64,000 bases of DNA. Origin: Candidatus Omnitrophota bacterium (GTDB taxonomy: Bacteria > Omnitrophota > Gorgyraeia > Tantalellales > Tantalellaceae). The translations under genes were made by a program, and so were the position numbers. The stretch covers positions 19,846 to 83,845 of the forward strand of contig JAJRVD010000025.1 of assembly GCA_024277375.1 (NCBI GenBank). The letters run 5' to 3'. Below the pieces are notes generated by a model, which was not told the origin of the DNA, made no database searches, and saw only the letters and a program-made list of their open reading frames with translations. This document shows positions 7,601 through 55,405 of this stretch, in pieces (positions within the stretch are counted from its first letter, which is position 1; each line of letters begins with the position of its first letter).

Positions 7601-7752
7601 TGCAAAACGCTTTTTTTTAATCAGACTGTACCATAATGTAGGGGCTTGATTCATCAAGCCCATTATATCGGGTTCGATGAATCGAACCCCTACAATCAAT
7701 ACATTGTATGCGGACATCCGCAAAACGAATTACGAAAGTCCTATTTTGCAGG
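7601..7752 (+). repeat. MITE-like element, family A, copy 1
   Basis: Outer ends TGCAAAACG / ATTTTGCAGGA; arms CAGACTGTACCATAAT / AATTACGA; core GTAGGGGCTTGATTCATCAAGCCCATTATATCGGGTTCGATGAATCGAACCCCTAC; lies between serA and the aminotransferase gene. Confidence 0.85.
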
Positions 7753-7786
7753 ATCCTTTAACGTGTACGAGCACGGCGCCGTGCCC

Positions 7787-8917
7787 CTACTTAAACAATT
7801 CTTGTGCCTTGCCAACACCTTTACCCAACCGAACATCAAAACCCAGCTGGCTGAGAACTATTTCTATTCCCGCTAGAGCCCCGATAGTGTCATACTCATC
7901 CATGTATCCAAGGTGAGCTAATCGAAATATCTTCCCTTTAAGCGCGGCCTGTCCGCCCGCGATCGTTACTCCCTGCTCATCACGCATTTTCTTTGCTAAC
8001 GCTCCGCCATCAACGCCTTCCGGGACTTTTACCGCGGTAACAGCATTCGAAGGCTTCTCAGAAAAAAGTTCAAGCCCCATAGCTTTTACCGCTTCACGCG
8101 TAGCATTCGCGAGTTTCGCGTGCCTCTTTAAAACATTATCAAGCCCCTCTTCCAGCAGCATATCAAGCACGGTATTAAGCCCCATTATCAACGATACTGC
8201 CGGAGTGTACGGGGTATCATCTTTCGCGTGCGCTTTTAACGCCGCCTTAAGATCAAAGTAATATTTAGGAAGGCTGGACGATTCCACAAGTTTCTGAGCT
8301 TTCCGGCTCAGACTCAAGAATGCCAGACCCGGGGGAAGCATAAGACCTTTCTGAGAACCGCAAACCACTACATCAACTCCCCATTCATCCGTTTTTAGTT
8401 CATCCGCGGATAATCCGCTAATAGCATCGACAACAAGCACAGCGTCGGTTGCCGAAACCACTTTAGCTATCGCCTTAATATCATTAACAACGCCGGTAGA
8501 TGTCTCGCATAAAGTACTGTATACGGCCTTCACGTCAGGATTTTCTTTAAGCAATTCGGACACAACTTCCGGATCCACGCTTTTTCCCCACTCAACGTCG
8601 CAATCTACAACTTCCACCCCGTAGGCACTACTTATCTCGGCAAATCTCTCACCGAATTTTCCGCCCTTTACAACGATAACCTTATCACCTCTGGACACTA
8701 AGTTCACTACAGAAGCTTCCATAGCACCGGTTCCGCTCGAAGCGAAAACAAAAACCGGGTTTTTCGTCTGAAAAAGTTTCTTAAGCTTAATGTTCACGTC
8801 CTTAAGCACAGCCTGGAACTGAGGTGTTCTATGGTGGATAATGGTATCGGCCATCTTTAGTAACACTTTTTCCGGCACAGGCGTAGGGCCCGGCGCCATC
8901 AATCTATATTTTCGCAT
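7787..8917 (-). CDS. class-V aminotransferase, probably phosphoserine aminotransferase (serine-glyoxylate/SerC-like)
   Basis: 376 aa; class-V PLP fold (SGTGAMEA ... SQKGL); immediately downstream of serA; TAG stop. Confidence 0.75.
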   Translation of the reverse strand: MRKYRLMAPGPTPVPEKVLLKMADTIIHHRTPQFQAVLKDVNIKLKKLFQTKNPVFVFASSGTGAMEASVVNLVSRGDKVIVVKGGKFGERFAEISSAYGVEVVDCDVEWGKSVDPEVVSELLKENPDVKAVYSTLCETSTGVVNDIKAIAKVVSATDAVLVVDAISGLSADELKTDEWGVDVVVCGSQKGLMLPPGLAFLSLSRKAQKLVESSSLPKYYFDLKAALKAHAKDDTPYTPAVSLIMGLNTVLDMLLEEGLDNVLKRHAKLANATREAVKAMGLELFSEKPSNAVTAVKVPEGVDGGALAKKMRDEQGVTIAGGQAALKGKIFRLAHLGYMDEYDTIGALAGIEIVLSQLGFDVRLGKGVGKAQELFK

Positions 8918-8938
8918 CTATTGCTCCTTACATTAATG

Positions 8939-8966
8939 GTAGGGGCGTATTGCAATACGTCCCTAC
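8939..8966. repeat. REP-like palindrome type 3b (GTAGGGRCGTAYYGCAAYACGYCCCTRC)
   Basis: GTAGGGGCGTATTGCAATACGTCCCTAC between clpP and the aminotransferase gene. Confidence 0.75.
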
Positions 8967-9561: not shown

Positions 9562-9595
9562 ATGTTCCTCCTTTTACGTACAGCGTATATTGCCT

Positions 9596-9748
9596 CTGCA
9601 AAACGCTGTTTTTTTAATCAGACTGTGTCATAATATAGGGGCTTGATTCATCAAGCCCGTTATATCGGGTTCGATGAATCGAACCCCTACAATATATTGT
9701 ATGCGGCCATACGCAAAACAAATTACGACACAAGTTCCATTTTGCAGG
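9596..9748 (+). repeat. MITE-like element, family A, copy 2 (flanked by the direct repeat GTACAGCGTAT)
   Basis: Full arms plus core; 11-bp direct repeat at 9578-9588 and 9755-9765; lies between tig and clpP. Confidence 0.85.
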
Positions 9749-9793
9749 ACCCTTGTACAGCGTATGGCATACAGCGCATAGCGTTATTGAAAA

Positions 9794-11068
9794 CTATTTT
9801 TTCTCGACTATTTCCGCCTCATCGAGGAGAAAATCCAGTGTTTTATCTTCTCTTATCTGTTCCTCAAGCCCTCCGATAAGATCATTTTCTCTGTAGTATT
9901 CCTTAACTTTGTCGAAGGGTTGGTTATAACTGACAGCGAGATTCCTGATCCATTCCTCCGTCTCTTCGTCCGTGGACTCAACCTTCTCAATGTTCGCGAT
10001 CGCGTCGAGGATAAAATACAATTTAACTTTGTTTTCGGATTCTCTGGTAAGTTGGTCCTTTAGTTCCGCTTTATGCGATTCCATGGTCTTCTCATCTACG
10101 CCTTTCTGCTTCAATTCGTTTTCCGCTTTTTCCGTAAGCACTTTCAATTGTCTCGCGACCATAGTTTCCGGGAGGTCAAAGGCATGTTTCTTGAGCAGTT
10201 GTTCCATGATCTGATTTTTCATAGCCACTTTATCGTTGTACTGTTTTCTCTCTAAGAGTTGTGCTCGCACTTCATTCCGCGCGTCATCCATTGTTTCTTT
10301 GCCTATCTTTTTGGCAAATTCGTCATTCAACTCAGGCAGTTTTTTCTATTTCGTTTCTTTGACTTCAACCTTAAATATAGCTTTTTTGCCGGCATATTTT
10401 TCGTCAGGATAATTTTCCGGTAAAACGATCTCCATGTCTTTCCGGTCTCCTTTTTTTAGACCGATAAGCTCCTCGCCCATCCCCAGAAGAGAGGTTTCTT
10501 TGTCTGCTTCGATCCACATGTTCTCGCGTTTTTTTGAGATCAATTTATCATCCATAAAAGTTTCCACATCACAAACACCAAAATCTCCTTTTTTCATGGA
10601 TCTCTCGATATCACTAAATTCGGCATTCATGCTCTGGAACCGCTCTATGGTCTCCTCTACTTCTTTGCCTTCAACTGTTATCTTCTCTGCGGAAACTTTC
10701 AAACCCTTATATTTCTGTAACTTTATCTCCGGATGTGTATCCACTTTAGCTTTAAATTTAAGACCCCCTGAAGCTTCCATGACCACATCTGAAACCTCAG
10801 GAAGACTTACCGGCGTGATACCGTGATCGTTCAACGCCCATTGATACCCCTCGGAAACCAAACGACGTTGAACTTCATCGGTCGCTTCCTCATGATGATG
10901 TTTTTGCACAATATCCATAGGAGCTTTACCCGTCCTGAAACCCGGAATAGTCACGGTTTTACGAATATCTTCCAGCACCTCTTTATAAACTTCTTCAACT
11001 TTCTGGCTTGGGATCTCTATGTCCAACTGCCTGGACGTTCCTTTAAGTTTTTTTATCTTACCTTTCAT
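9794..11068 (-). pseudogene. tig: trigger factor (tig) interrupted by a single in-frame TAG at 10346-10348
   Basis: ORFs 10346..11068 (N-terminal ribosome-binding plus PPIase domains) and 9794..10330 (C-terminal domain) are in the same frame. Translation reads ...KVEVKETK-TAG-KKLPELNDEFAKK, collinear with the trigger-factor consensus (ELPELDDEFAK). No frameshift; combined length is 424 codons. Confidence 0.8.
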
Positions 11069-11630: not shown

Positions 11631-11749
11631 TTAGGCTCCTTTCACATGAATAATCCGAAAAATAAGAAATATAACTATACCACTATGCGTTACGTTTTTC
11701 AATAGATTTTGACGCTATAGTTCGCCAATCTGCCTCAATTTCTCGTCAT

Positions 11750-11888
11750 TCAGACTGTGTCATACCGTAGGGGCTTGATTCAACACCGTAGGGGCTTGAT
11801 TCATCAAGCCCGTTATATCGGGTTCGATAAATCGAACCCCTACTTCGACTCGGTCTCGTCTCACTCGCTTCGCTCGTTCGCCCAGGAT
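11750..11888 (+). repeat. MITE-like element, family A, copy 3 (internal partial duplication, composite with tail module)
   Basis: GTAGGGGCTTGATTCA duplicated; the core is followed by a type-2 tail (...CGCTTCGCTCGTTCGCCCAGGATGAC); lies between hpf and lptB. Confidence 0.75.
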
Positions 11889-14835: not shown

Positions 14836-14854
14836 TCCTGTTCCTTTTTTCTTC

Positions 14855-15035
14855 TTCGTCATTCAGGCTGTGTCATAATGTACGGGCTTGATTCATCAAG
14901 CCCGTTATATCGGGTTCGATAAATCGAACCCCTACCGTATATAGTATGCGGCCACCCGCAAAACGAACTACGATACAGCCTGATTGCGCGGGAGCACAGC
15001 AACCGAAGCCATCTCTACATAAGATCCTTCGACCA
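14855..15035 (+). repeat. MITE-like element, family A, copy 4 with right-arm extension
   Basis: Core plus arms; right extension GAGCACAGCAACCGAAGCCATCTCTACATAAGATCCTTCGAC; lies between queF and queE. Confidence 0.8.
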
Positions 15036-16476: not shown

Positions 16477-16548
16477 GTAGGAGCCGCCTCCGGCGGCGAA
16501 TTGATGAATTGTTCGCGGCCCATCGCCGAAGGCGAGGCCGCTCCTACG
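16477..16548 (-). repeat. type-4 repeat (CCGTAGGAGCGGCC...CGCCGAAGGCG...GGGCCGCGAACAA)
   Basis: Long imperfect inverted repeat GTAGGAGCCGCCTCCGGCGGCG...CGCCGAAGGCGAGGCCGCTCCTAC between queC and queD; related copies are at 41611, 48466 and 61352. Confidence 0.7.
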
Positions 16549-17513: not shown

Positions 17514-17541
17514 GTAGAGGCACGGCATGCCGCGCCCCTAC
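17514..17541. repeat. REP-like palindrome type 3a (GTAGRGGCACGGCATGCCGYGCCCCTAC)
   Basis: 28-bp near-perfect palindrome between kdsD and kdsC; shares GTAGGGG/CCCCTAC ends with the MITE core. Confidence 0.75.
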
Positions 17542-21083: not shown

Positions 21084-21180
21084 AATTTTCTTCCTGGAAA
21101 AGCTCTTTACCGTATTTGACAAAGTGGCATACTTATATCGCTTCACTAATGACTCCCCTGTTATTACATATTCAAGGATC

Positions 21181-21345
21181 CTGCAAAATGAAATTTTCGT
21201 CATTCGGACTGTGTCGTAATTCGTTTAGCGGATAGCCGCATAAAATATATCGTAGGGGTTCGATTTATCGAACCCGATATAGCGGGCTTGATGAATCAAG
21301 CCCCTACATCATGGTACAGTCAGATTTAAAAAACAGCGTTTTGCA
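21181..21345 (-). repeat. MITE-like element, family A, copy 5 (reverse orientation)
   Basis: Reverse complement of the full-length element, including outer CTGCAAAATG / CGTTTTGCA ends; lies between the heptose kinase gene and trxA. Confidence 0.85.
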
Positions 21346-21367
21346 TAAGCCTAATTACATATTTCCG

Positions 21368-41610: not shown

Positions 41611-41640
41611 TCCGTAGGAGCGGCCTCCGGCCGCGAACAA
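41611..41640 (+). repeat. type-4 repeat copy
   Basis: CCGTAGGAGCGGCCTCCGGCCGCGAACAA upstream of pilD. Confidence 0.7.
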
Positions 41641-41684
41641 CACGTCGTACATCGCATAGCGTACATCATACAGCGTGTTCTCCT

Positions 41685-41885
41685 GTCATTCAGACTGTAT
41701 CATAATGTAGGGGCTTGATTTATCAAGCCCGTTATATCGGGTTCGATGAATCGAACCCCTACAATATGTTGTATGCGACCATCCGTAAAACGAATTACGA
41801 CACATCCTTAACCGAGGACATCGTTCCCGAGTAAGTCCCGGGACCAGAGGTTCTCGGGAAAGGGCCGAGTCAAAGGATCTCTTAT
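41685..41885 (+). repeat. MITE-like element, family A, copy 10 (composite with type-2 tail)
   Basis: Core plus arms at 41685-41806, then a tail ending GGGCCGAGTCAAAGGATCTC; lies between pilD and aroE. Confidence 0.82.
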
Positions 41886-42784
41886 TTGTCTCTCTTCAAC
41901 TCCGCCAAAACCGCTTCTTTCATAACTTTTTTCGTCTCTTCAAGAGGCTTCCCCGTCCATATATTAAAAGCAATGGCCGCCTGGTTGATCAGCATACCCA
42001 ATCCATTAACCGCTGTGAGCCCTTGTTCTTTCGCGGTTTTTAGAAGCCTCGTTTCCCGGGCATAGACAAGATCATATACTGTCATCCCCTCTCTTAAACA
42101 CTCAAGAGGAACAGCCGAACGATCATCCCCCTCTTTCGTTCCGATCGGGGTCGCGTTTACAACAAGTTCGCATTAGGCCATTCTTCCGGAAATATCTTTT
42201 GCCTCAACAGGGACGCACGCGTCCGGCCCAAACTGCTTCTTGCAAACAGTTGCCAATTGACAAAGTAGATCCTCTTGCGAATCATAAAGAAATATTTCTT
42301 CAGGTGCCGCCTCACCGATAGAAGCAAGATACATGCACAGAGCTCGCCCCGCCCCGCCGGATCCAAACAGAAAAACCTTTTTACCTTTGGGGTCAAATCC
42401 CGCGTCTTCTTGCAATGATTGATAAAACCCTTCCACGTCAGTATTATACCCCTTAACCTTTTCACCATCACTCCTGACGGTATTGACAGCACCCAGCAAT
42501 TCCGCTTCGCTATCTATAGTACACTTCTGTCCGGATTTCAGCATATCAAACACGGCTATCTTATAAGGTACCGTAACATTAATACCACCAATATTGTTGT
42601 CCTTGATAAGACTCAAGAAATCCTTATCTATATGTTTTGCTCTGGTGTCAAAATCTCTATCGAAAAGTTTATATTCGGTTGGTATGCCAAAATGGGCAAG
42701 CGCCGCATTATGCATGACGGGAGACAAAGAATAGCTTATATTCTTCCCAAGAAGACCGTATACTTTAGCGTTGACGTTCGACAT
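41882..42784 (-). pseudogene. aroE: shikimate dehydrogenase (aroE) interrupted by a single in-frame TAA at 42173-42175
   Basis: ORFs 42173..42784 (N-terminal substrate domain; Rossmann GSGGAGRA) and 41882..42085 are in the same frame. Read-through gives ...DISGRMA-TAA-CELVVNATPIGTKEG...MTVYDLVY..., matching the AroE consensus DLVVNATxxGM. Confidence 0.8.
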
Positions 42785-42834: not shown

Positions 42835-43030
42835 CAATCTCTGCAAAAATAATGTTTTATGGGGATTGCCGCGTCATCATTCGCTTTGCAAATGAACTCC
42901 TCGCATTCAGGCTGTGTCACAAGTCACTTTATGAAAGCTACATACAACATATTGCAGGGATTCATTTATCAAACCCGATATAACGGGCTTGATAAATCAA
43001 GCCCCTACATTGCGACACAGCATGAATGAC
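42835..43030 (-). repeat. MITE-like element, family A, copy 11 (degenerate, reverse orientation)
   Basis: One core half is retained (GATATAACGGGCTTGATAAATCAAGCCCCTAC); the other half is degenerate; the arms carry the CAAGTCACTTT...ACATACAACAT subfamily sequence; lies between aroE and leuA. Confidence 0.65.
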
Positions 43031-43037
43031 AATACAT

Positions 43038-44588
43038 CTATTTCTTGCTTGTTTTCTTTTTCGCCTTAGTGGCTTTCGCCGAAAGGCGATTAACGGCATT
43101 TATGTATGCTCTAACACTTGCCTCTATAACATCGGTACTGGAACCTCTGCCCATTACGATCTTTTTGCCGAAAGACACCTTCACGCTGGCTTCTCCAAGC
43201 GCGTCTTTGCCGCTGGTAACAGCGTTTATTCTGTAATCTACAAGTTTGCCCTTTTGGCCGATAGCTTTATCGATGGTCTTGAAACAAGCGTCAACGGGAC
43301 CATCACCCGTCGCGGTGGCTGAAAGTAGTTTTTTGTTTTTTTTAAGATCTACAGTGGCTAAAGGATCTACCTTATTACAACTAGTCACCTGAAAATTAAC
43401 AAGTTTATACTCTTCGGTAACCGTAGCGAGGTCATCTTCCACGATAGTAGCGAGATCTTCATCGTATATTTCAGCTTTTTTGTCAGCAAGGGTCTTGAAT
43501 CGCGCGAAGGCCTGGTCGAGTTCTTTATCAGAAAGAAAATATCCGAGTTTTTTCAACCGGGCTGATACCGCGTGACGTCCTGAAAGTTTTCCGAGGACTA
43601 TCTTTGAGCCCGAAAACCCGACATCCTGAGGCCTTATGATCTCATATGTAACGCGTTTTTTCATCACACCGTCTTGGTGTATCCCGGATTCATGGCTGAA
43701 AGCGTTCTCGCCGACGATAGCTTTGTTGGGCTGGGGGTTTATCCCGGTTAACTTGGCGACCAATTTACTTGTCTTATATAATTCTTTCGTAATGATCCCG
43801 GTCGTTATTCCCTTGAATATATCCTTACGCATCTTGACGGCCATAATAACTTCTTCAAGAGCGGCGTTACCCGCTCTTTCTCCCAGGCCGTTAATGGTAC
43901 ACTCTATCTGACGCGCGCCGTTCAAAACCGCTTCTAAAGAATTGCTTACCCCAAGCCCCAGGTCATTATGACAATGTACGCTTATTACCGCCTTACCGAT
44001 ATTGCTCACATTTTCATTGAGATATCGTATAAGGCTCCCAAATTCGCCGGGCACGGCATAACCTACGGTATCCGGAATATTGACCGTCCGCGCTCCGGCG
44101 GCGATAACCGCCTCCACGACTTCCGCGAGAAAATCGGGTTCCGTTCGCGACGCGTCCTCGGGGGAGAATTCAATATCCGAAATTTTCTTACGGGCATATT
44201 TTACCGCGTCCACTGAAGCCTTAAGTATCTCGTCTTTAGCTTTATTAAGCTTATATTTTCGATGTATACTCGAAGTTGCCAGAAAAACATGTATCCTGGC
44301 CCTTGCGGCTTTCTTAAGAGCCAGATAAGCGTCATCTATATCTCTTTTGGTCGCCCGGGCCAAACCACATATTATCGGTTTTTTGACGTGCTTTGAGACA
44401 GTCTTTACCGCGTCAAGATCTCCCGGACTGGTACGCGGAAACCCCGCTTCGATAACGTCAACACCCAGAGTTTCAAGCTGAAGCGCGATCTTTAATTTCT
44501 CATTCGCGTTCAGACTCGCTCCGGGTGTTTGTTCGCCATCCCTTAAAGTCGTATCAAAAATGATAACCTTGTCTTTCTTCATGATCAA
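43038..44588 (-). CDS. leuA: 2-isopropylmalate synthase
   Basis: 516 aa; HMGL-like TIM barrel (LRDGEQ) plus C-terminal LeuA dimerisation/regulatory domain. Confidence 0.95.
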   Translation of the reverse strand: MIMKKDKVIIFDTTLRDGEQTPGASLNANEKLKIALQLETLGVDVIEAGFPRTSPGDLDAVKTVSKHVKKPIICGLARATKRDIDDAYLALKKAARARIHVFLATSSIHRKYKLNKAKDEILKASVDAVKYARKKISDIEFSPEDASRTEPDFLAEVVEAVIAAGARTVNIPDTVGYAVPGEFGSLIRYLNENVSNIGKAVISVHCHNDLGLGVSNSLEAVLNGARQIECTINGLGERAGNAALEEVIMAVKMRKDIFKGITTGIITKELYKTSKLVAKLTGINPQPNKAIVGENAFSHESGIHQDGVMKKRVTYEIIRPQDVGFSGSKIVLGKLSGRHAVSARLKKLGYFLSDKELDQAFARFKTLADKKAEIYDEDLATIVEDDLATVTEEYKLVNFQVTSCNKVDPLATVDLKKNKKLLSATATGDGPVDACFKTIDKAIGQKGKLVDYRINAVTSGKDALGEASVKVSFGKKIVMGRGSSTDVIEASVRAYINAVNRLSAKATKAKKKTSKK

Positions 44589-44649: not shown

Positions 44650-44815
44650 TGTCTCAAGTCACTTTGCAAAGAACAACATACAACATAACATACAACATAC
44701 TGTAGGAGTTTGATTTATCGAACCCGATATATCGGGCTCGATAAATCAAGCCCCTACATTGCAACACAGACTGATCGCGAGGAGCACAGCAACGAATCAA
44801 TCTCTACGATATGTG
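44650..44815 (-). repeat. MITE-like element, family A, copy 12 (subfamily variant, reverse orientation)
   Basis: Core variant GTAGGAGTTTGATTTATCGAACCCGATATATCGGGCTCGATAAATCAAGCCCCTAC; shares the CAAGTCACTTT / ACATACAACAT arm with copy 11; right extension GAGCACAGCAACGAATCAATCTCTACGATA; lies between leuA and ilvC. Confidence 0.75.
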
Positions 44816-45847: not shown

Positions 45848-45903
45848 CTCACTTCCTCCTTTTTACTAGCGCTCATGCTTCATGCACAATACACTTTTTC
45901 CCC

Positions 45904-45985
45904 GTCCATTCAGACTGTATCATAATGTAGGGGCTTGATTCATCAAGCCCGTTATATCGGGTTCGATAAATCGAACCCCTACATT
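45904..45985 (+). repeat. MITE-like element, family A, copy 13 (right arm truncated)
   Basis: Left arm plus full core; ends 3 nt before the ilvH TAG stop; lies between ilvC and ilvH. Confidence 0.8.
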
Positions 45986-45988
45986 ACG

Positions 45989-46474
45989 CTATTCACTATC
46001 CGACCGCAAAGCTATCTTTCCGGTCCTCACGATCTCCAAAATTCCATAGGGACGTACCAGCTCCACAAGAGCTTTTATCACATGGTCATCCCCTGACTCT
46101 TCAACAGTAAGAGACTTCTTACCGACATCCACTATCTCCGCACCGGTAGTGTCAACAACTTTTACGATCTTTTCCCTGACCTTAGTATCCGGCGCCTTGA
46201 CCTTTATCAGTATAAGCTCTCGCCCGATATGCTCTCCCTCGGTAAGGTCCTGCACGCTAATGACATCTATAAGTTTATTAAGCTGTTTCTTTACCTGTTC
46301 CAATATCTTCTCATCCGCCGCCACGACTATTGTCATCCTTGATGTATCAGGATCTTCCGTTTCACCTACCGCTAACGACGTAATGTTAAACCCCCGTGCG
46401 GAAAAAAGTCCGGCAACCCTCGCCAAAACACCAAACTTATTTTCTACTAAAACTGATAGTACAAATTTAGACAT
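45989..46474 (-). CDS. ilvH: acetolactate synthase small (regulatory) subunit
   Basis: 161 aa; ACT domain plus C-terminal ALS_ss_C; TAG stop abuts a truncated MITE. Confidence 0.9.
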   Translation of the reverse strand: MSKFVLSVLVENKFGVLARVAGLFSARGFNITSLAVGETEDPDTSRMTIVVAADEKILEQVKKQLNKLIDVISVQDLTEGEHIGRELILIKVKAPDTKVREKIVKVVDTTGAEIVDVGKKSLTVEESGDDHVIKALVELVRPYGILEIVRTGKIALRSDSE

Positions 46475-46502
46475 TATTACTCCTTAGCTTTCAGTCTTAG
46501 AC

Positions 46503-46675
46503 TCATGCAAAACGCTGTTTTTTCAATCAGACCGTATCATAATGTAGGGGCTTGATTCATCAAGCCCGTTATATCGGGTTCGATAAATCGAACCCCTACA
46601 ATATCTTGTATGCGGCCATCCGCATAACAAATTACAACACAGGCCGAATGACGAAAGTTCCGTTTTGCAAAACCC
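46503..46675 (+). repeat. MITE-like element, family A, copy 14 (full length)
   Basis: Outer ends ATGCAAAACGCTG / CCGTTTTGCAAAA; flanking CAGTCTT / AGCTTTCAG direct-repeat motifs on both sides; lies between ilvH and ilvB. Confidence 0.88.
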
Positions 46676-46738
46676 TATTCAGTCTTCAGCTTTCAGCCTT
46701 CAGCTGCTGATAGCTGAAAACTGATAGCTGATAGCTCA

Positions 46739-48465: not shown

Positions 48466-48511
48466 CCGTAGGAGCGGTATCACAGCACCTTCGGTGATGG
48501 GCCGCGAACAA
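48466..48511 (+). repeat. type-4 repeat copy
   Basis: CCGTAGGAGCGGTATCACAGCACCTTCGGTGATGGGCCGCGAACAA in the ilvB leader. Confidence 0.7.
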
Positions 48512-48673: not shown

Positions 48674-48701
48674 GTAGGGGCACGGCATGCCGTGCCCCTA
48701 C
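48674..48701. repeat. REP-like palindrome type 3a
   Basis: GTAGGGGCACGGCATGCCGTGCCCCTAC, a perfect palindrome immediately left of MITE copy 15. Confidence 0.8.
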
Positions 48702-48709
48702 AAATAATT

Positions 48710-48928
48710 TGTCATTCAGGCTGTGTCGTAATGTAGGGGCTTGATTCATCAAGCCCGTTATATCGGGTTCGATAAATCGAACCCCTACAATATATTGTAT
48801 GCGGCCATCCGCAAAACGAATTGCGACACGGCCTGATTGCGAGGAGGAGCGGAACAACGACGAGGCCGAGGAACAACGTTTCCGAGGTCATCCTGAGACC
48901 AGAGAGTCTCAGGGCGGCAATCTCTAAA
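48710..48928 (+). repeat. MITE-like element, family A, copy 15 (composite with type-2 tail)
   Basis: Core plus arms at 48710-48850, then GTCATCCTGAGACCAGAGAGTCTCAGGGCGGCAATCTC; lies between ilvB and the giant ORF. Confidence 0.85.
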
Positions 48929-49011: not shown

Positions 49012-52000
49012 TTACACCGATCGCCAGACTTCTGACGTCGCCGCGAAGATCTCCTTGATCATACCCATATCCACTTTTGTTATCGCCGGCAATGCCAGGT
49101 TAAAAACTATTTTAACGAAATCTCCTATACCTTTGGAATTAAATGCCTCTACTAATTCTTTCTCGAAATCCTCGATGCTATTCGCATTGTTAGTCGCACG
49201 CGCTAATGCCCTGGCCTTTAGCCTTACGGCGTCTTCCTGGTCTTTCGGTGTTGCTCTATTTTCCTTAGCAAGATTTGCCACATGTCCCAAGTTAAGATTG
49301 GCAAATGATACGCCCATCAAACTGCCGTACGGCATCACAGCCGCAGGATCTTCCGCATTCTCTTTATCCTTCCATATCGTAAGCATAGTATTTTCATTAA
49401 GAAAATCTTCTACACTTTTCTCTCGCGTCAAATCTTTCAACGCCTCTAACTTCTCTAATTCTTCAAGTACCGATCTGGCTATCTGAAGATCTATCCGGGT
49501 ACGGCTATCATCTTCCCCCTTAAACGCGTCAATAGCTTCGCGAATAATTTTTTCAGCTTCATTCGTACCCATTGTATTTCTTAATCTTATGTTACCTTCC
49601 TTGCCCAAATCATGTTCGGCTATAAAGTTGTTTCCGCTGCTTTTCAAAGCGGTTAATCGTGACGCGAATTCCACTTGCGTCACCCCTTCCGGCTTGCCAC
49701 CCGCGATTATACCGTAGCACGGGGGTAGATCTTTACTCATAACTTCAGCGACATCCATTGCAGACGCTTCGACACCCTTCGTCATTGCTTCTTTGACCTC
49801 GTCTTTATTTCCTTCATACGGCTTGCTGCCATCGATGGTCACAGAATCATCGGTTACATTAAATTCTACAACATCCACAGCTTCAAGCTCATCCAAAAAT
49901 TGTTTCCTTATATTGTGATACCGACGTATTATACCGTCAGCCGTATCATCACTTGTTGCTACGAGCCGGACACCATTAAATACGACACTAGACATATCAC
50001 CCGGCAGAAGGTCCTCTACCATTCGGCTAGCAATACTTTCTATTGTTTCATCGGCATCCGGTATCACCTTGAACATCTGGGGCCCATCACCTTCCGACGC
50101 TATTATCTCTTTGGCGCGCGCCAATACCATGTTCTGTCGTTCGATATCAGTTATATCGTTCATCTCAAGAAACCCTACAATATCTGATTCAGCTTTAAAA
50201 ACTTCTTTATAATTATCCGGAAAAATTCTTGCAGCGTTGAGAGAATATATTTCTTCTGCCAAAATGACGGCGTCTTTGAATCTTTGTGTCAATATCAGTG
50301 CAAACGCGTTTTCTTTATCTGACAAACCGGAGATCTCTGCTCTTGCCGTAGATTCTTCAACAAGTTTCTCTCCCTGCGGAGACAAGATCTTTTTAGCCAG
50401 CTTCAATATCTTATCCTGACGTGTACTCTCTCTTATATTGTATTTTTCAAGAAAACTTACGACAGCGTCTTCAGCTTTCCTAGCTGGGGCACCCCAATCC
50501 CTTGCGATAGCAGCATCACCATAAATTCCTTCCGCTAAATTGACATCTCCCCGCTTACCAAAGGGGGATTGTGCTAATAACCTGGCTAAAATGGTATCAT
50601 CCAAATTTTTAAACTTATGATCAGGTAAATTCCCATCATATAATATCTTGTTCAAACTAATCGTCTGCGCGTACATCAATACTATGTCCTGTATCAACTT
50701 TGGAACATCCTTATCTTCAGTATTTTTAATTAGCTGAGGTGAGATATAGAGCTTTCCTGCTTCAAAATATATACCATCCATAATGCCAGCGGTATCGGAG
50801 GGCCTTAGCTCTTTTTCTGCGAACGGAATAGCGATATTCTGTCCACTAGATATGTCTGCAAGCACAAACTCAATTATTTTATTAACAACCGTTTTCGCAT
50901 CCAGAGTCTCATTAATGCCTATTTTTTTAAGAAGCTCTTTCTCCATCCGTTTTGTCATCTGCTCACGATTGTGATTTAATAGCTTGCCCATATCATCCTG
51001 CATATACCTCAGTCCTTCGATCAACCTGAATGCCACACGAACAGTTTTTCCATTAAAGAACATATTGCCATACCATGCGCTTAGTTGCATCTCTTCAAAC
51101 GCGCGGATCAGCTCATTTGCTTTTGCCCTGATAGACACAACCTCTTCCGGAGCATTCAAATACCTGGGATTTATGTATATCACACCATCGTTTTGATGCA
51201 TTGTATACTTCGTCAGGTCCGTAAGATTCTGGTTGTTTAAAACGTCTATATTTGAGGCTCTCTCCATGCTGTTCCTTCTCAACATGTCCGCGACATCTCT
51301 CGCTACCAAATCGAGACTACTCATCTTTACTATTTCATCGAACAGCTTCTTGCCTTCTCCTCCTTCAAGATCTAAAAAGTCAGAGCCATATATTCCAACC
51401 GCTTCCCTATGTAATAAGCCCTGATGACTCTCTGCCGCTAATACAGCAATGGCTTCTGTAACTTTCTTGTCCCTCGTAAATTCTTCCCCGTCCGCTCTTG
51501 CCTGCTCCTCAGCTACCAAGTCTAACTGTGCGAACTCATCTAAGCCTTCAATCACATCACTTCTTTCTTTCACTTCATGGTACAATTGTCTGCTGATCTC
51601 CTCTAAATTTCCCGCATCAAACAATTCCTGTGGTAAATATATCTGCGCTCTCGAAACGCCATAATGTCCGCTCCTTAAACCTGGCACAATTATGATCTGC
51701 ACATCCTTCAATAAACTAGTTCTATTTGGCAGCCCGCCTATAACCTCAACCAATAGCCTCATTTGAGCCGGAACCAATCCGGGAGTTTCATTTTGCTTAA
51801 ATGTTTCTCCAGTTTTTCCGTCGGTTTTCACATAAGATTGGACTATCTCGCCATCATCAAACTGATAGGAAGTGGTTAACCCGTCTTTGAGCGGTTTTTC
51901 GATCCACCTTTTATACTCCTTGTTGTCCAACCCCTCCACGCCGCGGCCGTAGGCAAATTTATTGGAAGTTACATTGCTCTTCTTAGCCTGATAATAATGA

Positions 52001-53844
52001 TTTTGTGTTCCCCCCCTTAATATCCTGTCTCCCTCTCTGATCTCTTCCAGTTTTATCAACATATCATCTCTCAAGCCCTCTTGTGGCTTTGGTCTTGCGC
52101 GGCTGACCACTACAAAAAGATCATCCCCCCACTTCTCTTTGAACAACTCCACGCCGGGAGCAGCATTTCTCCAATCTTTTATCATTTTTTCTATTCGCAA
52201 CAACTTCTCATTCTCCTCAATAAAATCCATCCCATCCATATTCTTTTTTATGTTCCGGATAGTTTTGGCCAACTCTATTACGTTATCGGTAAAGTCTTCC
52301 GAAGACACATCCGCGAATCCATCCACTTTTGCCAGACCCGTCAACTGTTCAAACAGATCCACGCCATAGGCAAAATCCCTGTCTCCACCTTTTTCTATTC
52401 GGTCTCCTTCCATAGCAAGATTAATTATTTCCATAGCGTCCATATCCATGCTCTCGCTGTGTTTAATGCTATATGCCGCGCCTGTTTCATGTATTAAAAC
52501 TTCCGCTAATTGCGTATAATCTTGTAACAAATCCGGGTTCAGATATATCGTTTCGTAACTGGCATGGCCACTTACAGGTATTGACTTGTTCCAAATTTGT
52601 ATGTCCTGTTTCATGATAAAATCTATCTGGGATTCTTCTAACCTTAAACTACGAAGAGCAGCTTTTAGTTCCTCCAGGTCTTCGCCCTGCTCCCCAAACT
52701 TATGCATTCCTGCCTCTTTCCCTAATGCGTCTATCCATACTTCATGCTGCAGATACGTCATCGTGTCACCGTCTACAAGAACAATGTCTATGAAGTCCGC
52801 CATACGCCGAATATCCTTATCTGTTTCTACGTAAATATCGACCCCTATTAGAAGCCCTACATCCATAGCAAACCCGGTATCCGAATGTCTTGGTGCTATG
52901 TATGTGGTATCATAATCGGCCGAATGAATGTCTATCCACCCAAACTTGGTCTTAATCGTCAACGTTTCGTTTTTGGCTAACGCTTCCGCTGCCTTGACCA
53001 TCAACTCCATCATATTTTTATTTCTCACATCTATACCCATCTCAGAAAACAGGCTCTGTACGGCTATGGTAGAAGCTCCGGGGGTATAAGAGACCGCTTT
53101 GGTTATAAGCTCCTCGAAGGGCGACTTTTCGCCCGCCAGAAGAGCAAAATACGGACTGTCTTCCTCAACTTGAAGGCGTGGCATTACCTCGATGTATGAG
53201 TATCCTTCTTTTTCAAAGAGTTCCGCCAGGTTTTCCGTATGGAATCCCCCTGTTACAAGAACGGCTATTTTTTTGTCACCGAACTTAGCTCCGATATTCT
53301 TTAAAAACGCGTCATCCCTTTTGAATGCATAGTCATAGAATCCTTCCATATGTTCTCTATAGGAATCTAGTTTTGCTATACCAGAAGGAGTTGTTAGTTT
53401 CAGGCCGTACTGCGGAGCCTTCGCGTCAAAAAAGGCGGTAAAACATTTAACTCCGAACCCGTCTCTGTTGGCCTTGTAATACTCATACTTGTCCCTGACA
53501 AGTGAAAGTGCGAAGAGATCCTTAAGTATGCTCAGTTTTTTTGAAAGTTCGATGAGCCTCTCCTGATCAGGAGTTTTCGCGAACGTCTTCATAAGAGCCT
53601 CTTCTATTTTCCGTACGTCCTTATTAAGGGACGCTTTATCAATATGTTCATAATTTTTCACATATTCAGCATATTTAACAAGGTTGGGCAACTTGCTAAA
53701 GTCTACCGACGCGAATTCCGCTTTCTTAAAAAGATATACATAAAAATCTTCGGATGAAATGTCACCGGTCTTGAACGCGATGGTCTTAACAGCCAGACGT
53801 TTGGCGGCTTTTCTGGATAGTTTTTTGGTAAGTTTATCGATCAA
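49012..53844 (-). CDS. giant hypothetical protein (1,610 aa in this ORF)
   Basis: Uninterrupted 4.8-kb ORF with coding-like composition and no recognisable catalytic motif; a rho-independent terminator follows at 48925-48967. The ORF-track start is a TTG with no RBS, and the ORF is in frame with the upstream ORF 53959..54702. Confidence 0.6.
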   Translation of the reverse strand: MIDKLTKKLSRKAAKRLAVKTIAFKTGDISSEDFYVYLFKKAEFASVDFSKLPNLVKYAEYVKNYEHIDKASLNKDVRKIEEALMKTFAKTPDQERLIELSKKLSILKDLFALSLVRDKYEYYKANRDGFGVKCFTAFFDAKAPQYGLKLTTPSGIAKLDSYREHMEGFYDYAFKRDDAFLKNIGAKFGDKKIAVLVTGGFHTENLAELFEKEGYSYIEVMPRLQVEEDSPYFALLAGEKSPFEELITKAVSYTPGASTIAVQSLFSEMGIDVRNKNMMELMVKAAEALAKNETLTIKTKFGWIDIHSADYDTTYIAPRHSDTGFAMDVGLLIGVDIYVETDKDIRRMADFIDIVLVDGDTMTYLQHEVWIDALGKEAGMHKFGEQGEDLEELKAALRSLRLEESQIDFIMKQDIQIWNKSIPVSGHASYETIYLNPDLLQDYTQLAEVLIHETGAAYSIKHSESMDMDAMEIINLAMEGDRIEKGGDRDFAYGVDLFEQLTGLAKVDGFADVSSEDFTDNVIELAKTIRNIKKNMDGMDFIEENEKLLRIEKMIKDWRNAAPGVELFKEKWGDDLFVVVSRARPKPQEGLRDDMLIKLEEIREGDRILRGGTQNHYYQAKKSNVTSNKFAYGRGVEGLDNKEYKRWIEKPLKDGLTTSYQFDDGEIVQSYVKTDGKTGETFKQNETPGLVPAQMRLLVEVIGGLPNRTSLLKDVQIIIVPGLRSGHYGVSRAQIYLPQELFDAGNLEEISRQLYHEVKERSDVIEGLDEFAQLDLVAEEQARADGEEFTRDKKVTEAIAVLAAESHQGLLHREAVGIYGSDFLDLEGGEGKKLFDEIVKMSSLDLVARDVADMLRRNSMERASNIDVLNNQNLTDLTKYTMHQNDGVIYINPRYLNAPEEVVSIRAKANELIRAFEEMQLSAWYGNMFFNGKTVRVAFRLIEGLRYMQDDMGKLLNHNREQMTKRMEKELLKKIGINETLDAKTVVNKIIEFVLADISSGQNIAIPFAEKELRPSDTAGIMDGIYFEAGKLYISPQLIKNTEDKDVPKLIQDIVLMYAQTISLNKILYDGNLPDHKFKNLDDTILARLLAQSPFGKRGDVNLAEGIYGDAAIARDWGAPARKAEDAVVSFLEKYNIRESTRQDKILKLAKKILSPQGEKLVEESTARAEISGLSDKENAFALILTQRFKDAVILAEEIYSLNAARIFPDNYKEVFKAESDIVGFLEMNDITDIERQNMVLARAKEIIASEGDGPQMFKVIPDADETIESIASRMVEDLLPGDMSSVVFNGVRLVATSDDTADGIIRRYHNIRKQFLDELEAVDVVEFNVTDDSVTIDGSKPYEGNKDEVKEAMTKGVEASAMDVAEVMSKDLPPCYGIIAGGKPEGVTQVEFASRLTALKSSGNNFIAEHDLGKEGNIRLRNTMGTNEAEKIIREAIDAFKGEDDSRTRIDLQIARSVLEELEKLEALKDLTREKSVEDFLNENTMLTIWKDKENAEDPAAVMPYGSLMGVSFANLNLGHVANLAKENRATPKDQEDAVRLKARALARATNNANSIEDFEKELVEAFNSKGIGDFVKIVFNLALPAITKVDMGMIKEIFAATSEVWRSV

Positions 53845-53958
53845 AGCCCGACGTTCCCTGTTGGCTTTTTTAAAATCAATAGACTTTTCGTCCCCAAGCA
53901 GTTTAAGAAGAGCATTAACATCCGCGTGTTGCTCAATATCTACACCGTTAGCCTTACT

Positions 53959-54702
53959 TTACTTCGCTAGAAAAGTTACATATTCTTTAAACTCAATTTT
54001 TTTCCCATTATATGCCATACGTTTTCCATCAACAACTTTAAGAGCCGACGTGTATATCTTGCGCTTTAAATTACTCATCCCGTTCTCTAAAAATTTTAGG
54101 TATCTATCGGCATCCTCTTTAAACGCCAGCGAACTCCTGTAAGCGTTTAAGTTTCCAAAATATAACTCTTCATTTTCGATCCCTGAAAGCTCGATCTTGT
54201 ATGGATTGTTTATAGCGAAGAATTCGGCACCTGTAACACGTCCGGCTTTCACAAATAAGTCGGATACCTGTTCTCTTACCTGTCGGTCACGTATGTCGGT
54301 AAACATCGACAGGTCATACTCGCCCGCTCCCCCTTCAAGAAACGCGAGATCCGCGCCATAAGCTTCATTGGTATACTTCATGAGGTTGGCGATAGATCGT
54401 TGGGCGGAATAGTTACAATGGGCGTCCTGGATGTGGATGATCGTTTTACCATTCTCACCGGAGATCCTGCGTTTTATCTCTCCAAAACGTAGCGGCACCG
54501 TAGAGGAGGCGGGGTCGAATTCCTCCCGGGCATATACCTCGCCTCCCGGGATACCGGCAATAATTCCCGGCACCTCGACAGCAGCGATGGCTCTAGCCAG
54601 ATCCGCGCCTATCATTGTGAACGAAAAAGAACACAGCGTAATTATCGCGAATGTTCTCATCAGCGTCTTTCTGAGACCGGTTTTATTATTAGAATAACAC
54701 AT
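53959..54702 (-). CDS. hypothetical secreted protein (possible N-terminal part of the giant protein)
   Basis: 247 aa; N-terminal signal/TM segment; strong AGGAGGA RBS before ATG 54702; same frame as 49012..53844, separated from it by one TAA plus 38 stop-free codons. Confidence 0.55.
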   Translation of the reverse strand: MCYSNNKTGLRKTLMRTFAIITLCSFSFTMIGADLARAIAAVEVPGIIAGIPGGEVYAREEFDPASSTVPLRFGEIKRRISGENGKTIIHIQDAHCNYSAQRSIANLMKYTNEAYGADLAFLEGGAGEYDLSMFTDIRDRQVREQVSDLFVKAGRVTGAEFFAINNPYKIELSGIENEELYFGNLNAYRSSLAFKEDADRYLKFLENGMSNLKRKIYTSALKVVDGKRMAYNGKKIEFKEYVTFLAK

Positions 54703-55290
54703 GGTTCCTCCTGAAAGTTTTTAAACGACCTTAATTAGTTTGCAAAAAAATATCGTCCAGATCACCTAAATTATTTCACTTAAACGCGCTATGCGCATCT
54801 ACATATTAGTTTACCTAATAGACTAGAATTTACAAACTTTATAATCGTACTTTTTCATATCTAACCATAGCGTGGCCCTCATATCGGGGCCCATCCTGGG
54901 GCCAGGCCCCAAGGGGCCACCCCTGAGCACAAAAAATGGCCGATATTCTAACTTTTTCGCTTAACAGACGCCCCTGCTACCGATTGGTGCAGGCCACAGC
55001 TGTCCGGTAAAAATTTCTACGAGGATCTTTCGTGTTTATTTCATCAAGAGGCAGAACGATTTAACAGTGTAACCTCAATATTTATAGCAATCACCAAATA
55101 AATTGTTTTCGTATCGTATGCTGTCCAATAAATTTCTCGCAAACAATGTCCCGGGTAAATCCACAGTACCAGGTTCCCGTAATCACAGAGCCTCTTATAT
55201 GAGGGGGTGTGCCGCGCGCAGGCACGGAAAAAAGGGAAAATGTTTCCGTTTTTACGCATGTTTGAGCACGGTATACCCCCTCAGATACAA

Positions 55291-55405
55291 ACTGTGTCGT
55301 AACGTAGGGGCTTGATTTATCAAGCCCGTTTATATCGGGTTCGATGAATCGAACCCTTACAACATATTGTATGCGGCCATCCACAAAACGAATTACGACA
55401 CAGCC
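55291..55405 (+). repeat. MITE-like element, family A, copy 16
   Basis: Arms ACTGTGTCGTAACGTAGGGG / ATTACGACACAGCC; core with minor substitutions; lies between the giant-ORF upstream region and alr. Confidence 0.82.

Follow-up and report, generated by a model that had tools for sequence, protein, structure and literature searches.

REP-based repeats and MITEs are the described systems closest to the element analyzed here, a family found in a window of DNA (the whole 64-kb stretch under study) from an Omnitrophota MAG. In the classical REPIN a single imperfect palindrome supplies both REPs, the second an exact inverted copy of the first, and REPIN-RAYT systems are reported to be vertically inherited and lineage-specific. 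The Pseudomonas REPINs (Bertels and Rainey 2011) share with our element an inverted REP doublet able to form a long hairpin; unlike the classical form, however, its two REPs are two different perfect palindromes, for which reason its long hairpin is an imperfect one, and unlike REPIN-RAYT systems its core is common to several phyla.

At the E. coli rayT locus, which we inspected directly, the same GTAG-REP-spacer-iREP-CTAC architecture lies on the flanks of the gene, and the E. coli REP/BIME system with its RayT protein (TnpA-REP) resembles the element in its head-to-head, non-identical GTAG hairpins with a short spacer and CTAC on the outside, as well as in its extragenic location and high copy number. 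The element nonetheless has no sequence similarity to it, has 8-bp stems that are perfect and lack the bulge seen in E. coli, and carries its doublet inside a larger inverted-repeat unit with target duplications. By the published rules a REP unit has a fully paired stem of at least 7 with the tag 0-2 nt away, a loop of 2-5 and a GC-rich base (PMC6006769). The SMAG/REPSm repeats of S. maltophilia have the same geometry of GTAG and 8-bp perfect palindrome as the element, and these REPs, with a 3-nt loop, are cut in vitro by their own RAYT (PMC8266576). Composite 'TIR' elements of P. putida and P. fluorescens, in which degenerate GTAG-1 REP units are coupled to unrelated stem-loops (Di Nocera et al. 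2013, PMC3733652), likewise fuse GTAG REP units with other inverted sequences into larger palindromic structures in many copies; those, however, flank RAYT genes and have the REP unit outside, whereas our element has a central, intact REP doublet and outer arms that carry target duplications.

The other relevant group comprises the Correia/NEMIS, ERIC and RUP MITEs, which the element matches in being 100-200 bp long, non-coding and intergenic, in having terminal inverted repeats and target-site duplications, and in being co-transcribed with its neighbours and folding as a long hairpin. It shows no sequence relation to them in the collections searched, its centre rather than its termini is most conserved, and this centre is joined to unrelated termini in other lineages. 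The element combines known kinds, REP/REPIN and MITE, in a new form.

Sixteen intergenic copies in 64 kb

The 56-nt core occurs in the window at 12 sites with at most 3 mismatches (0.00 expected from shuffles) and at 13 sites with at most 8; searches with single hairpins bring in further copies at 31853, 42985 and 55308, which are degenerate or partial, so that the total is 16 loci, and profile HMMs made from the copies recover the same 16 and none besides. The copies are as follows.

Copy 1, 7594-7757, plus: full-length A-type, 17 nt deleted from the right arm; core 7638-7693; flanked by the direct repeat TAACATGTA (7583-7591) and TAACGTGTA (7759-7767)
Copy 2, 9592-9753, plus: full-length A-type between clpP and tig; core 9635-9690; 11-bp target-site duplication GTACAGCGTAT (9578-9588 and 9755-9765)
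Copy 3, 11742-11849, plus: left arm, 21-bp internal tandem duplication and core (11788-11843); right internal segment and right arm absent
Copy 4, 14853-14994, plus: B-type without TGCAAAACG ends; core 14880-14935; right arm runs on as ...GCGGGAGCACAGCAAC...; no target duplication
Copy 5, 21175-21352, minus: full-length A-type; core 21252-21307; 10-bp target-site duplication AATATGTAAT in element orientation (21163-21172 and 21354-21363)
Copy 6, 31822-31986, plus: B-type between lpxK and kdtA; an inserted GC hairpin (TCCCCGCGAAAGCGGGGA) interrupts the second hairpin and an inverted spacer copy replaces the CTAC foot
Copy 7, 37528-37666, plus: B-type between dprA and aroK-HD; core 37553-37608
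Copy 8, 39326-39505, plus: full-length A-type, the reference copy
Copy 9, 40726-40798, minus: essentially bare core (40730-40785) between aroC and pilD
Copy 10, 41682-41816, plus: B-type between pilD and aroE; core 41707-41762
Copy 11, 42887-43039, minus: degenerate, between aroE and leuA; first hairpin intact (42985-43004), second decayed
Copy 12, 44689-44777, minus: degenerate core (44702-44757, 6 mismatches) between leuA and ilvC; long B-type left arm reaching ~44810
Copy 13, 45883-46010, plus: left arm and core (45927-45982), right side diverged; between ilvC and ilvH
Copy 14, 46499-46676, plus: full-length A-type between ilvH and ilvB; core 46544-46599; 9-bp target-site duplication TTCAGTCTT (46490-46498 and 46678-46686)
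Copy 15, 48707-48847, plus: B-type; core 48733-48788
Copy 16, 55286-55407, plus: variant with a spacer 1 nt longer and a CTTAC foot; covered by a spurious ORF (55091-55411)

All 16 copies are intergenic; together they span 2,257 bp, or 3.5% of the window, and account for 35% of the non-coding sequence, at a coding density of 90%. They occupy 16 of the 20-21 intergenic gaps of at least 100 bp (about three quarters of the larger gaps) and all fall in the ~7% of sequence that was non-coding before insertion; insertions into genes were not seen in the window, and the small overlaps with mechanical ORF calls reflect start-codon over-extensions or one spurious ORF. With copy sizes of 73-180 bp and only spurious ORFs within, the family is small (below the ~300 bp expected of a MITE), non-coding, multi-copy and dispersed, as MITEs are. 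With 12 plus and 4 minus copies, orientation does not deviate significantly from parity (two-sided binomial ~0.08), and the division is confounded, since nearly all window genes and the GC skew point one way.

An earlier note on this DNA had described such a dense family, with 16 copies per 64 kb, dispersed, non-coding, built on inverted repeats, confined to intergenic DNA and present in both orientations and in full, truncated and degenerate forms. All of this is upheld, and the copies lie within ~50 nt of the positions it gave; its figure of hundreds of copies per genome would be an extrapolation from the density in the window. Its mention of spurious ORFs over the element is illustrated by the one across copy 16, and its statement that the window holds no transposase agrees with a Pfam scan of ~50 ORFs, all of them housekeeping, and with a RAYT profile that found no match there; E. 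coli RayT likewise had no match in the window, neither it nor the RAYT profile matched 27 genome loci outside it, and the window has no tRNA or tmRNA genes.

The core is a doublet of GTAG-tagged hairpins

The invariant 56-bp centre consists of GTAG-GGGCTTGA-TTYA-TCAAGCCC, an 8-nt spacer and GGGTTCGA-TRAA-TCGAACCC-CTAC, that is, two perfect 8-bp GTAG-tagged hairpins placed head-to-head. The parts of the reference copy are these.

39313-39325 and 39505-39519: direct repeat of 12-15 bp, (T)TACATACTTTTT(AG)
39326-39372: left inverted repeat
39373-39396: REP-a (GTAG + GGGCTTGA-TTCA-TCAAGCCC)
39397-39404: spacer GTTATATC
39405-39428: inverted REP-b (GGGTTCGA-TGAA-TCGAACCC + CTAC)
~39429-39462: right internal segment with a small hairpin, GCGGCCATCCGC
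~39463-39505: right inverted repeat

By the published rules, with the tag scored as GT[AG]G 5' of the stem (Di Nocera 2013; Quentin 2018), the window contains 27 REP units as against 0-1 in shuffled sequence. These are extragenic, in high copy and arranged as head-to-head dimers with GTAG outside, as defines GTAG-REPs, and the two inverted REPs are separated by a short spacer of 6-10 nt (4-12 nt in a wider metagenome set), as in REPINs and BIMEs. As a REP doublet of the BIME/REPIN class, the core is of a known kind; the earlier note was right that a double-hairpin core is present but overlooked this affiliation.

Within the window the core has a pairwise identity of 96.3%, whereas the left arm stands at 78.5%, the right internal segment at 85.4% and the right arm at 64.3%. 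As a single strand it can form either two hairpins or one long imperfect hairpin at nearly equal energy (-16.1 kcal/mol for the two hairpins summed and -16.4 kcal/mol for the long one); both folds had been proposed in the earlier note. The two-hairpin model pairs 97.8% of cells, with compensatory double changes at 3 pairs, and the long hairpin 88.7%; this covariation test draws mostly on nine metagenome sequences, and part of the covariation is also compatible with alternative pairings (columns 22-38; tag columns 2-58). In a metagenome superfamily the foot and tip are fixed and the middle covaries. We note that the loop of the second hairpin can hold a further, nested GC hairpin, as at window 31822-31986 and L027:2575-2656, and that palindromes with a double foot of the GTAG type co-occur in the source genome and in its relatives.

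The view that no named repeat family matches at the sequence level stands. Rfam 15 gives no match in the window at gathering score, and one copy searched at a permissive E-value gives only sub-threshold, miRNA-like hairpin matches; plasmid, phage and E. coli genome collections contain no match to the element, and a full-text literature search found the hairpin sequences in no paper and no paper tying Omnitrophota to MITEs or REPs. A phage vector for the doublet was considered and rejected on the finding of 0 matches in viral contigs to either its canonical or its degenerate form.

Arms, ends and target-site duplications

Five full-length copies of ~165-180 bp have imperfect terminal inverted repeats of ~38 bp. 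The inner arms, TCAGRCTGTGTCRTAAT ... ATTRCGACACAGYCTGA, are found in most copies just as first described, but the outer ends, TGCAAAACG ... (C)ATTTTGCA, are confined to 5 of the 16 (7594, 9592, 21175 on the minus strand, 39326 and 46499), and the TGCAAAACG ends mark one subfamily only. Complete ends in these five have the form AGRCTYN-TGCAAAACG...TTTTGCA-NRRGYCT; the right outer end is CCATTTTGCA, and the form CGTTTTGCA occurs in a single copy. A GCAAAAYG motif is present at each end and a third time inside the element.

All five complete copies have direct repeats of 9-15 nt immediately outside the inverted ends, exact at 9, 10, 11 and 12-15 nt in four and a 9-mer with a single mismatch in the fifth; direct repeats of at least 9 nt occur in 0.7% of control flank pairs. 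Such duplications are a hallmark of transposition, and the five full-length copies have transposed. The description 'MITE-like' accordingly holds for these five because they have terminal inverted repeats and target-site duplications, but the other 11 show no target duplication above chance. The family as a whole consists of non-autonomous mobile elements of ~140-180 bp with two layers, a core and a carrier.

Distribution in other lineages

Exact core stems are present in MAGs of Desantisbacteria (GC 30-36%), Desulfobacteraceae, other Omnitrophota and Auribacterota (GC 57%), labels that may include mis-binned contigs. The core is not private to the source genome, as identical stems occur in at least 4 other phylum-level lineages with arms that are unrelated or absent; their invariance across phyla is partly one of ascertainment, since they were retrieved by an exact-stem pattern. 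Outside the window the stems are either naked or within MITEs whose inverted repeats are unrelated. In Desulfobacteraceae the element is a MITE of 147 bp that has an inverted repeat of 22 bp, GTAACTTCTCAATAAGTTGGGG, and exact duplications of 8 bp, and its homology with the Omnitrophota element runs ~35 nt past the core (CAAT.T..RTATGYGGCCA...GAATTAC). Naked doublets were found at no fewer than 9 genome loci and at 9 metagenome loci, with no target duplication seen. The core is better conserved than the arms and recurs with unrelated termini, and is thus a module separate from its carrier.

The copies at all 27 genome loci outside the window are extragenic, and relative to the flanking genes 7 copies across genomes are sense and 7 antisense. 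One naked copy is kept at an orthologous site in two Desulfobacteraceae MAGs with flanks 63-85% identical, an observation biased by exact-pattern retrieval. At the syntenic loci of three Omnitrophota relatives (~80% LeuA identity) gene order is kept, the gaps measure -4 to 125 bp and no copy is present. In the source lineage the element has colonised the short gaps within conserved housekeeping operons: ten adjacent spacers of the conserved ilv-leu-aro-dprA-kdtA cluster, whose genes overlap or nearly touch in relatives, hold elements of ~75-180 bp able to fold as hairpins. With at least 4 phylum labels and absence from the nearest relatives, this pattern departs from lineage-specific vertical co-inheritance.

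The search for a mobilising enzyme

Neither the window nor 27 + 53 loci yielded a cognate RAYT like that of the E. coli system, apart from a Y1 transposase gene 56 nt from a canonical-like doublet at one locus, L037. Orthologues of this gene (100%, 68% and 67% identity) all lie at one DJ-1/MutL locus and are consistently flanked by TGCGTCAGGAG.../GTGTCAGGAC... doublets of a CGTC-tagged type, and the GTAG doublet is absent beside the 68% and 67% orthologues. The adjacency at L037 is therefore probably due to chance, and we reject this Y1 protein as the enzyme of the doublet, its cognate repeats being different at all orthologous loci. A Y1 gene at another locus (L084), 1.1 kb from the doublet, is of the TIR-flanked type and was also discarded. 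Scanning metagenomes for a doublet followed downstream by the RAYT N-terminal motif gave 0 matches, and clustering of ORFs over the 27 genome loci returned only housekeeping families or response regulators. RAYT genes flanked by GTAGGG-tagged hairpins or doublets are present in a Chloroflexota plasmid and a Thermodesulfobacteriota MAG.

What moves the element

The reading we favour, at a probability of about 0.6, is that of a carrier MITE with a separate REP-doublet core, the carrier being moved by a DDE transposase and the core being read by a RAYT-like protein. The carrier would be inserted by a staggered-cut enzyme of DDE type supplied in trans from elsewhere in the genome, although duplications of 9-15 nt are loose for one such enzyme. 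The constancy of the core suggests a conserved protein that reads it as a folded strand, and the GTAG tag and stem geometry make a RAYT-like Y1 HUH transposase the likeliest candidate; the core presumably entered, or was captured by, different carrier MITEs. This two-layer model needs two enzymes, because Y1 transposases leave no target-site duplications. Also against it stand the 11 of 16 copies that show no duplication and the failure of the enzyme searches above to reveal a mobilising protein.

A bolder proposal, which we offer tentatively, is that the GTAG double hairpin is itself a mobile module that crosses phyla and inserts where other palindromic elements expose a single-stranded tip, for instance at the centre of a MITE or in a hairpin loop. 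It would ride on unrelated MITEs or be repeatedly captured by them, as a parasite of parasites, and a candidate HUH enzyme would recognise the foot (GTAGGGG) and tip (GAT-NN-ATC) while tolerating a variable 4-bp middle. The proposal fits because the same core is found with different arms, naked copies exist, GC hairpins are nested within it, and the superfamily has a fixed foot and tip.

It seems unlikely that the element is an ordinary MITE, an internal-deletion derivative of a horizontally spread IS whose sub-terminal sequence supplies the double hairpin. Inverted repeats with target-site duplications in two lineages, the homology extending past the core between Omnitrophota and Desulfobacteraceae, and the resemblance of the recurrent GCAAAAYG to sub-terminal transposase-binding repeats all speak for such an origin, but the lineages have inverted repeats of unrelated sequence, the duplications differ (8 nt as against 9-15 nt), armless naked doublets are common, and it is the core, with its exact fit to the GTAG-REP definition, and not the termini that is best conserved.

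Rather improbable is a pure REPIN/BIME moved by a RAYT alone, with the arms as passengers or hairpin extensions and the direct repeats incidental. The architecture of the core, its conservation above that of the arms, the naked doublets without target duplication and the GTAG-type double-foot palindromes in the source genome and relatives would all be expected of one; REPIN/BIME-RAYT systems, however, make no duplications, and the complete copies have symmetric repeats of 9-15 nt in 5 of 5 cases and the Desulfobacteraceae MITE exact ones of 8 bp. Neither the metagenome scan nor the L037 orthologues revealed an association with RAYT, and the core crosses phyla whereas REPIN-RAYT systems are described as lineage-specific and vertical.

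We consider it very doubtful that the element is chiefly a structural or regulatory module kept constant by host function (a hairpin for mRNA 3' ends or processing, an insulator of operons or a protein-binding site) with mobility secondary. Copies must be transcribed through, since they lie inside conserved operons whose genes overlap or are tightly spaced in relatives; the whole element is very stable as RNA (-82 kcal/mol, z = -9.5), a promoter-like TTGATG-N16-TATGAT reads out of some copies, and the naked copy at an orthologous site has been kept. Yet that last evidence is subject to the retrieval bias, close relatives are entirely without the element, the T tract of an intrinsic terminator is absent, and counts of promoter-like and terminator-like motifs do not clearly exceed those in shuffles; an orientation-dependent RNA function is rejected on the 7:7 division of orientations across genomes. 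An assembly or binning artefact, for which one could cite the several split genes in this MAG window, is already contradicted by point differences among copies, unique flanks with target duplications, and related copies in dozens of independent assemblies, and has virtually no chance of being correct.

Wider context

GTAG-tagged REP doublets are now found in uncultured phyla, in MAGs of Omnitrophota, Desantisbacteria, Auribacterota and Desulfobacteraceae, and identical stems across phyla challenge the lineage-specific, vertical view of REP/REPIN systems. REPs, which are thought to be moved by Y1 enzymes without duplications, are here joined to MITEs with inverted repeats and duplications, which raises the question of who moves what. 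The filled spacers of the ilv-leu-aro-dprA-kdtA cluster should affect operon transcription, and the element helps to explain the fragmented assemblies of such MAGs and could be used as a strain marker. We also note that copy 15 abuts a separate GTAGGGGCACGGCATGCCGTGCCCCTAC palindrome at 48674-48701.

Copy number, placement and anatomy

The 56-nt core occurs at 12 sites in the window with no more than 3 mismatches, against 0.00 expected from shuffles, and at 13 sites with no more than 8; using each 20-nt hairpin as the query brings in three more, degenerate copies, and profile HMMs made from the copies retrieve exactly 16 loci, the same 16 that were counted in the earlier note. Together the copies amount to 2,257 bp, or 3.5% of all window sequence and 35% of the part that is non-coding, and fill 16 of the 20-21 gaps of at least 100 bp between genes. 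None of the 16 lies within a gene, as had been proposed, and since the non-coding share of the window before insertion was about 7%, their placement is far from random. A Pfam scan of about 50 ORFs bears out the reported lack of a transposase in the window, as all identified ORFs are housekeeping genes (such as serA, clpP, tig, hpf, queC/E/F, LPS and ilv/leu/aro genes, dprA, topA, metK and ahcY). No tRNA genes are present in the window, and Rfam gave no match there.

Parts of the element in order (consensus; reference copy 39326-39505), with mean pairwise identity among the window copies
Left inverted repeat (left arm): AGGCTTG-TGCAAAACGCTG-T(6-8)-(C/A)AATCAGRCTGTGTCATRAT; 78.5%
Core, with hairpins GTAGGGGCTTGA and GTAGGGGTTCGA; 96.3%
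Right internal segment, about 34 nt: CAATATRTTGTATGCGGCCATCCGCAAAACRAATT, holding a small hairpin; 85.4%
Right inverted repeat (right arm): ACGRYACAGCCTGAATGACGARAATTCCATTTTGCA-CAAGTCT; 64.3%
Terminal sequence of this Omnitrophota carrier: AGGCTTGTGCAAAACG

Full, truncated and degenerate forms are all represented, as previously described. The outer inverted ends are a feature of the five complete (A-type) copies only; about five B-type copies have the inner arms but a different outer extension, and the remainder are truncated or decayed. The whole element is predicted to form a long hairpin that bears a side hairpin, at -40.8 kcal/mol as DNA (z = -7.4) and -82.1 kcal/mol as RNA (z = -9.5). The termini are usually the best conserved part of a MITE; here the pattern is reversed, with conservation highest at the core.

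The core is a GTAG REP doublet

Each half of the core consists of GTAG directly followed by a perfect, GC-based 8-bp stem with a 4-nt loop, and the second half is inverted, giving outward-facing GTAG...CTAC feet; this is the double hairpin recognized earlier. The long imperfect hairpin offered as an alternative is iso-energetic (-16.4 versus -16.1 kcal/mol for two hairpins). Among 28 distinct cores, the two-hairpin model leaves 97.8% of cells paired and includes three pairs with compensatory double changes, a number reached in 0-1 of 500 shuffles, whereas under the long-hairpin model 88.7% are paired and two positions never pair. Some covariation is also seen at the feet (GCAG/CTGC in Auribacterota) and for a central stem (columns 22-38). 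Ten of the 28 aligned cores were retrieved with their stems fixed, and the covariation signal therefore rests on the window copies and nine metagenome sequences.

The core fits the published operational definition of a REP (PMC6006769), and the rules of that definition find 27 REPs in the window compared with 0-1 in shuffles. Di Nocera et al. (PMC3733652) describe GTAG REPs arranged, as here, in a "head-to-head dimer". Direct inspection of the E. coli rayT locus shows that its flanking doublets also have the GTAG-REP-spacer-iREP-CTAC architecture and consist of two non-identical REPs. GTAGGG-tagged hairpins border a RAYT from Chloroflexota, where they form doublets of this layout, and one from Thermodesulfobacteriota, where they stand singly. 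Because definition, arrangement and RAYT-locus architectures agree, the core belongs to the known REP class. The S. maltophilia REP that is cleaved in vitro by its own RAYT likewise has a perfect 8-bp stem after GTAG, with a loop of 3 nt; in that system the enzyme needs the tag to cleave and the loop to recognize its substrate (PMC8266576). The family is new in sequence and joins a MITE carrier to a GTAG REP doublet, each of a known kind.

A degenerate metagenome scan, in which the foot GTAGGG and tip GAT-NN-ATC were fixed and the four middle stem positions left free, recovered 53 loci. Nine are canonical-like naked doublets with a spacer that forms a mini-hairpin of its own (GCC-AAA-GGC). There are also several sister families: some pair one imperfect palindrome with its exact inverted copy, as in classical REPIN logic, and others combine two different perfect hairpins like the window core.

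The core is separate from its carriers

A cross-genome scan with the two stems fixed, loops and spacer free and one genome per species found at least 27 loci in MAGs labelled Desantisbacteria (GC 30-36%), Desulfobacteraceae/Deltaproteobacteria, Omnitrophota and Auribacterota (GC 57%), although such exact-pattern retrieval biases the picture both of taxonomic spread and of stem covariation. All 27 loci among the matches listed are intergenic. In Desulfobacteraceae the core lies inside a MITE of 147 bp whose inverted repeat, GTAACTTCTCAATAAGTTGGGG, is 22 bp long and whose duplications are exact and 8 bp in length (for example AGGTGTAC, TTTTCAAC, GTGAAAAG and GTTTTTCT(T)); this MITE matches the window element over the core and along some 27 aligned bases of the right internal segment, but not in the arms. 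The arms of Desantisbacteria copies are different again, and at least nine loci lack arms entirely. Core and arms are thus separate modules, and the unusual features of the family are the identity of the core module across phyla and its association with unrelated carriers. The family would gain in interest if the core proved to be loop-seeking, to move independently and to have an enzyme of its own.

Transposition and candidate enzymes

For each of the five complete copies we took the longest exact string common to both 30-nt outer flanks. These strings measure 11, 15, 9-10 and 10 nt, with one 9-mer containing a single mismatch, and lie 5-9 nt outside a TGCAAAA motif, symmetrically on both sides; only 0.7% of 5,000 control flank pairs share strings of 9 nt or more. 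They are target-site duplications, roughly 9-13 nt in length with an upper limit made uncertain by chance extension. Besides being real and dense, the element is mobile. No target duplication above chance is seen in the other 11 copies. Duplications of this kind imply that the target was cut in a staggered way, which is how DDE transposases cut; going by the duplications, a DDE-type transposase would have inserted the carrier. A RAYT-like enzyme, proposed purely by analogy, would act on the core.

No Y1 gene lies in the window or at the 27 genome loci listed, and a pattern scan found no doublet 45-105 nt upstream of a conserved RAYT N-terminus. One of the 53 metagenome loci, L037, has a Y1_Tnp gene (Pfam E = 1.7e-10) 56 nt from a canonical-like doublet. 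Its orthologues share a DJ-1/MutL locus, and the gene and all orthologues are flanked by TGCGTCAGGAG-CTA-CTCCTGACGCA and GTGTCAGGAC-TGAG-GTCCTGACAC doublets, whereas the GTAG doublet is found only at a 100%-identical copy. We therefore reject this gene as the enzyme of the core; it serves another repeat, and its adjacency to the GTAG doublet most likely reflects REP clustering. The flanking doublets are CGTC-tagged hairpins (L037:116-263 and 829-851; also at the metagenome loci L090 and L092-L095), and the gene is retained at the DJ-1/MutL locus across related metagenome genomes, always flanked by them. Di Nocera et al. 2013 (PMC3733652) reported CGTC-tagged REPs to lack a dedicated transposase; this Y1 gene looks like one.

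Host lineage and operons

The window LeuA places it in Candidatus Omnitrophota, with one database entry 100% identical and the following matches at about 80% identity, many of them labelled Omnitrophota. Three relative sets share the gene order alr-ilvB-ilvH-ilvC-leuA-aroE-pilD-aroC-aroK-PAS/HD-dprA-topA-xerC-kdtA-lpxK, with intergenic gaps of -4 to 125 bp and no element copies in this cluster, whereas ten of its spacers in the window, 141-579 bp long, each hold one. The element therefore invaded this lineage after its split from these relatives, and its copies sit inside gene clusters that elsewhere are operons.

Copies occur in both orientations, as noted earlier, and the split of 12 to 4 in the window is not significant and is also confounded with the single gene direction and GC skew. 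Among the matches listed, 14 genome loci divide into 7 sense and 7 antisense relative to co-directional neighbours, and nothing indicates an orientation-dependent role. GC skew is uniformly and strongly negative (about -0.2) over the whole window, and the minus strand carries all Pfam-supported genes but one; this uniformity and extreme co-orientation place the window inside one replichore.

Some copies contain a promoter-like TTGAT(G/A)-N16-TATGAT reading towards the downstream minus-strand gene, in numbers equal to those in shuffles. The first hairpin together with the left-arm junction makes up such sites at 41726-41699, 45946-45919 and 46563-46536 of the minus strand; in most copies TATGAC replaces TATGAT. 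What can most safely be said is that the copies form very stable predicted hairpins and are transcribed within operons; an effect on RNA processing, by analogy with Correia, ERIC and REP elements, is a conjecture.

Other repeats and gene irregularities

Two further families, of single double-foot palindromes, are GTAGGGGCACGGC(AT/GC)GCCGTGCCCCTAC and GTAGGGGCGTATTGCAATACGTCCCTAC. They are mostly found 3-30 nt downstream of the stop codons of minus-strand genes, and the foot CTA at 7787-7789 doubles as a stop codon.

Repeats in the window
Double-foot palindromes, first group: 17514-17541, 48674-48701, 62892-62918, 7768-7790
Double-foot palindromes, second group: 8939-8966, 21367-21394, 23533-23560
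Other short modules: 11849-11875, 15022-15033, 22883-22987, 37695-37769, 61295-61306
Other short modules, further set: 16509-16548, 41600-41640, 48467-48511

In a relative (L096:13284), GTAGGGGCGGTTCGCGAACCGCCCCTAC lies between pilD and aroC, and similar palindromes occur 1.3-2.1 kb from a Thermodesulfobacteriota RAYT gene (L036). The second hairpin carries GC-rich hairpins nested in its loop in the window copy 31822-31986 and at L027:2575-2656, with L011 also concerned. The insert in the window copy, TCCCCGCGAAAGCGGGGA, has a GNRA-type loop and occurs free in an Auribacterota locus; that in a Desulfobacteraceae locus is a different GC hairpin. These nested hairpins hint that small palindromes insert into hairpin tips. 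We note that copy 31822-31986 also has an inverted spacer copy in place of the CTAC foot.

The gap from alr to ilvB measures just 230-620 bp in syntenic relatives, but in the window it contains a 1,610-aa and a 247-aa ORF without Pfam match (49012-55411); this insert of about 6.4 kb is bracketed by two same-orientation element copies (48707-48847 and 55286-55407). Trigger factor (9794-11068) and chorismate synthase (39505-40632) are both broken into two ORFs, while the ORF of shikimate dehydrogenase (42157-42784) is truncated to 203 aa compared with 293-301 aa in relatives; these are either assembly frameshift errors or real pseudogenes. A single fused ORF of 504 aa comprises both aroK and the PAS/HD gene, unlike in relatives. 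The other short modules, which include ATCCTTCGACTCGG, TCGCTTCGCTC and the motif CGTAGGAGCGG...CCGCGAACAA, mostly adjoin element copies, and together suggest that small repeats form a mosaic in this genome.
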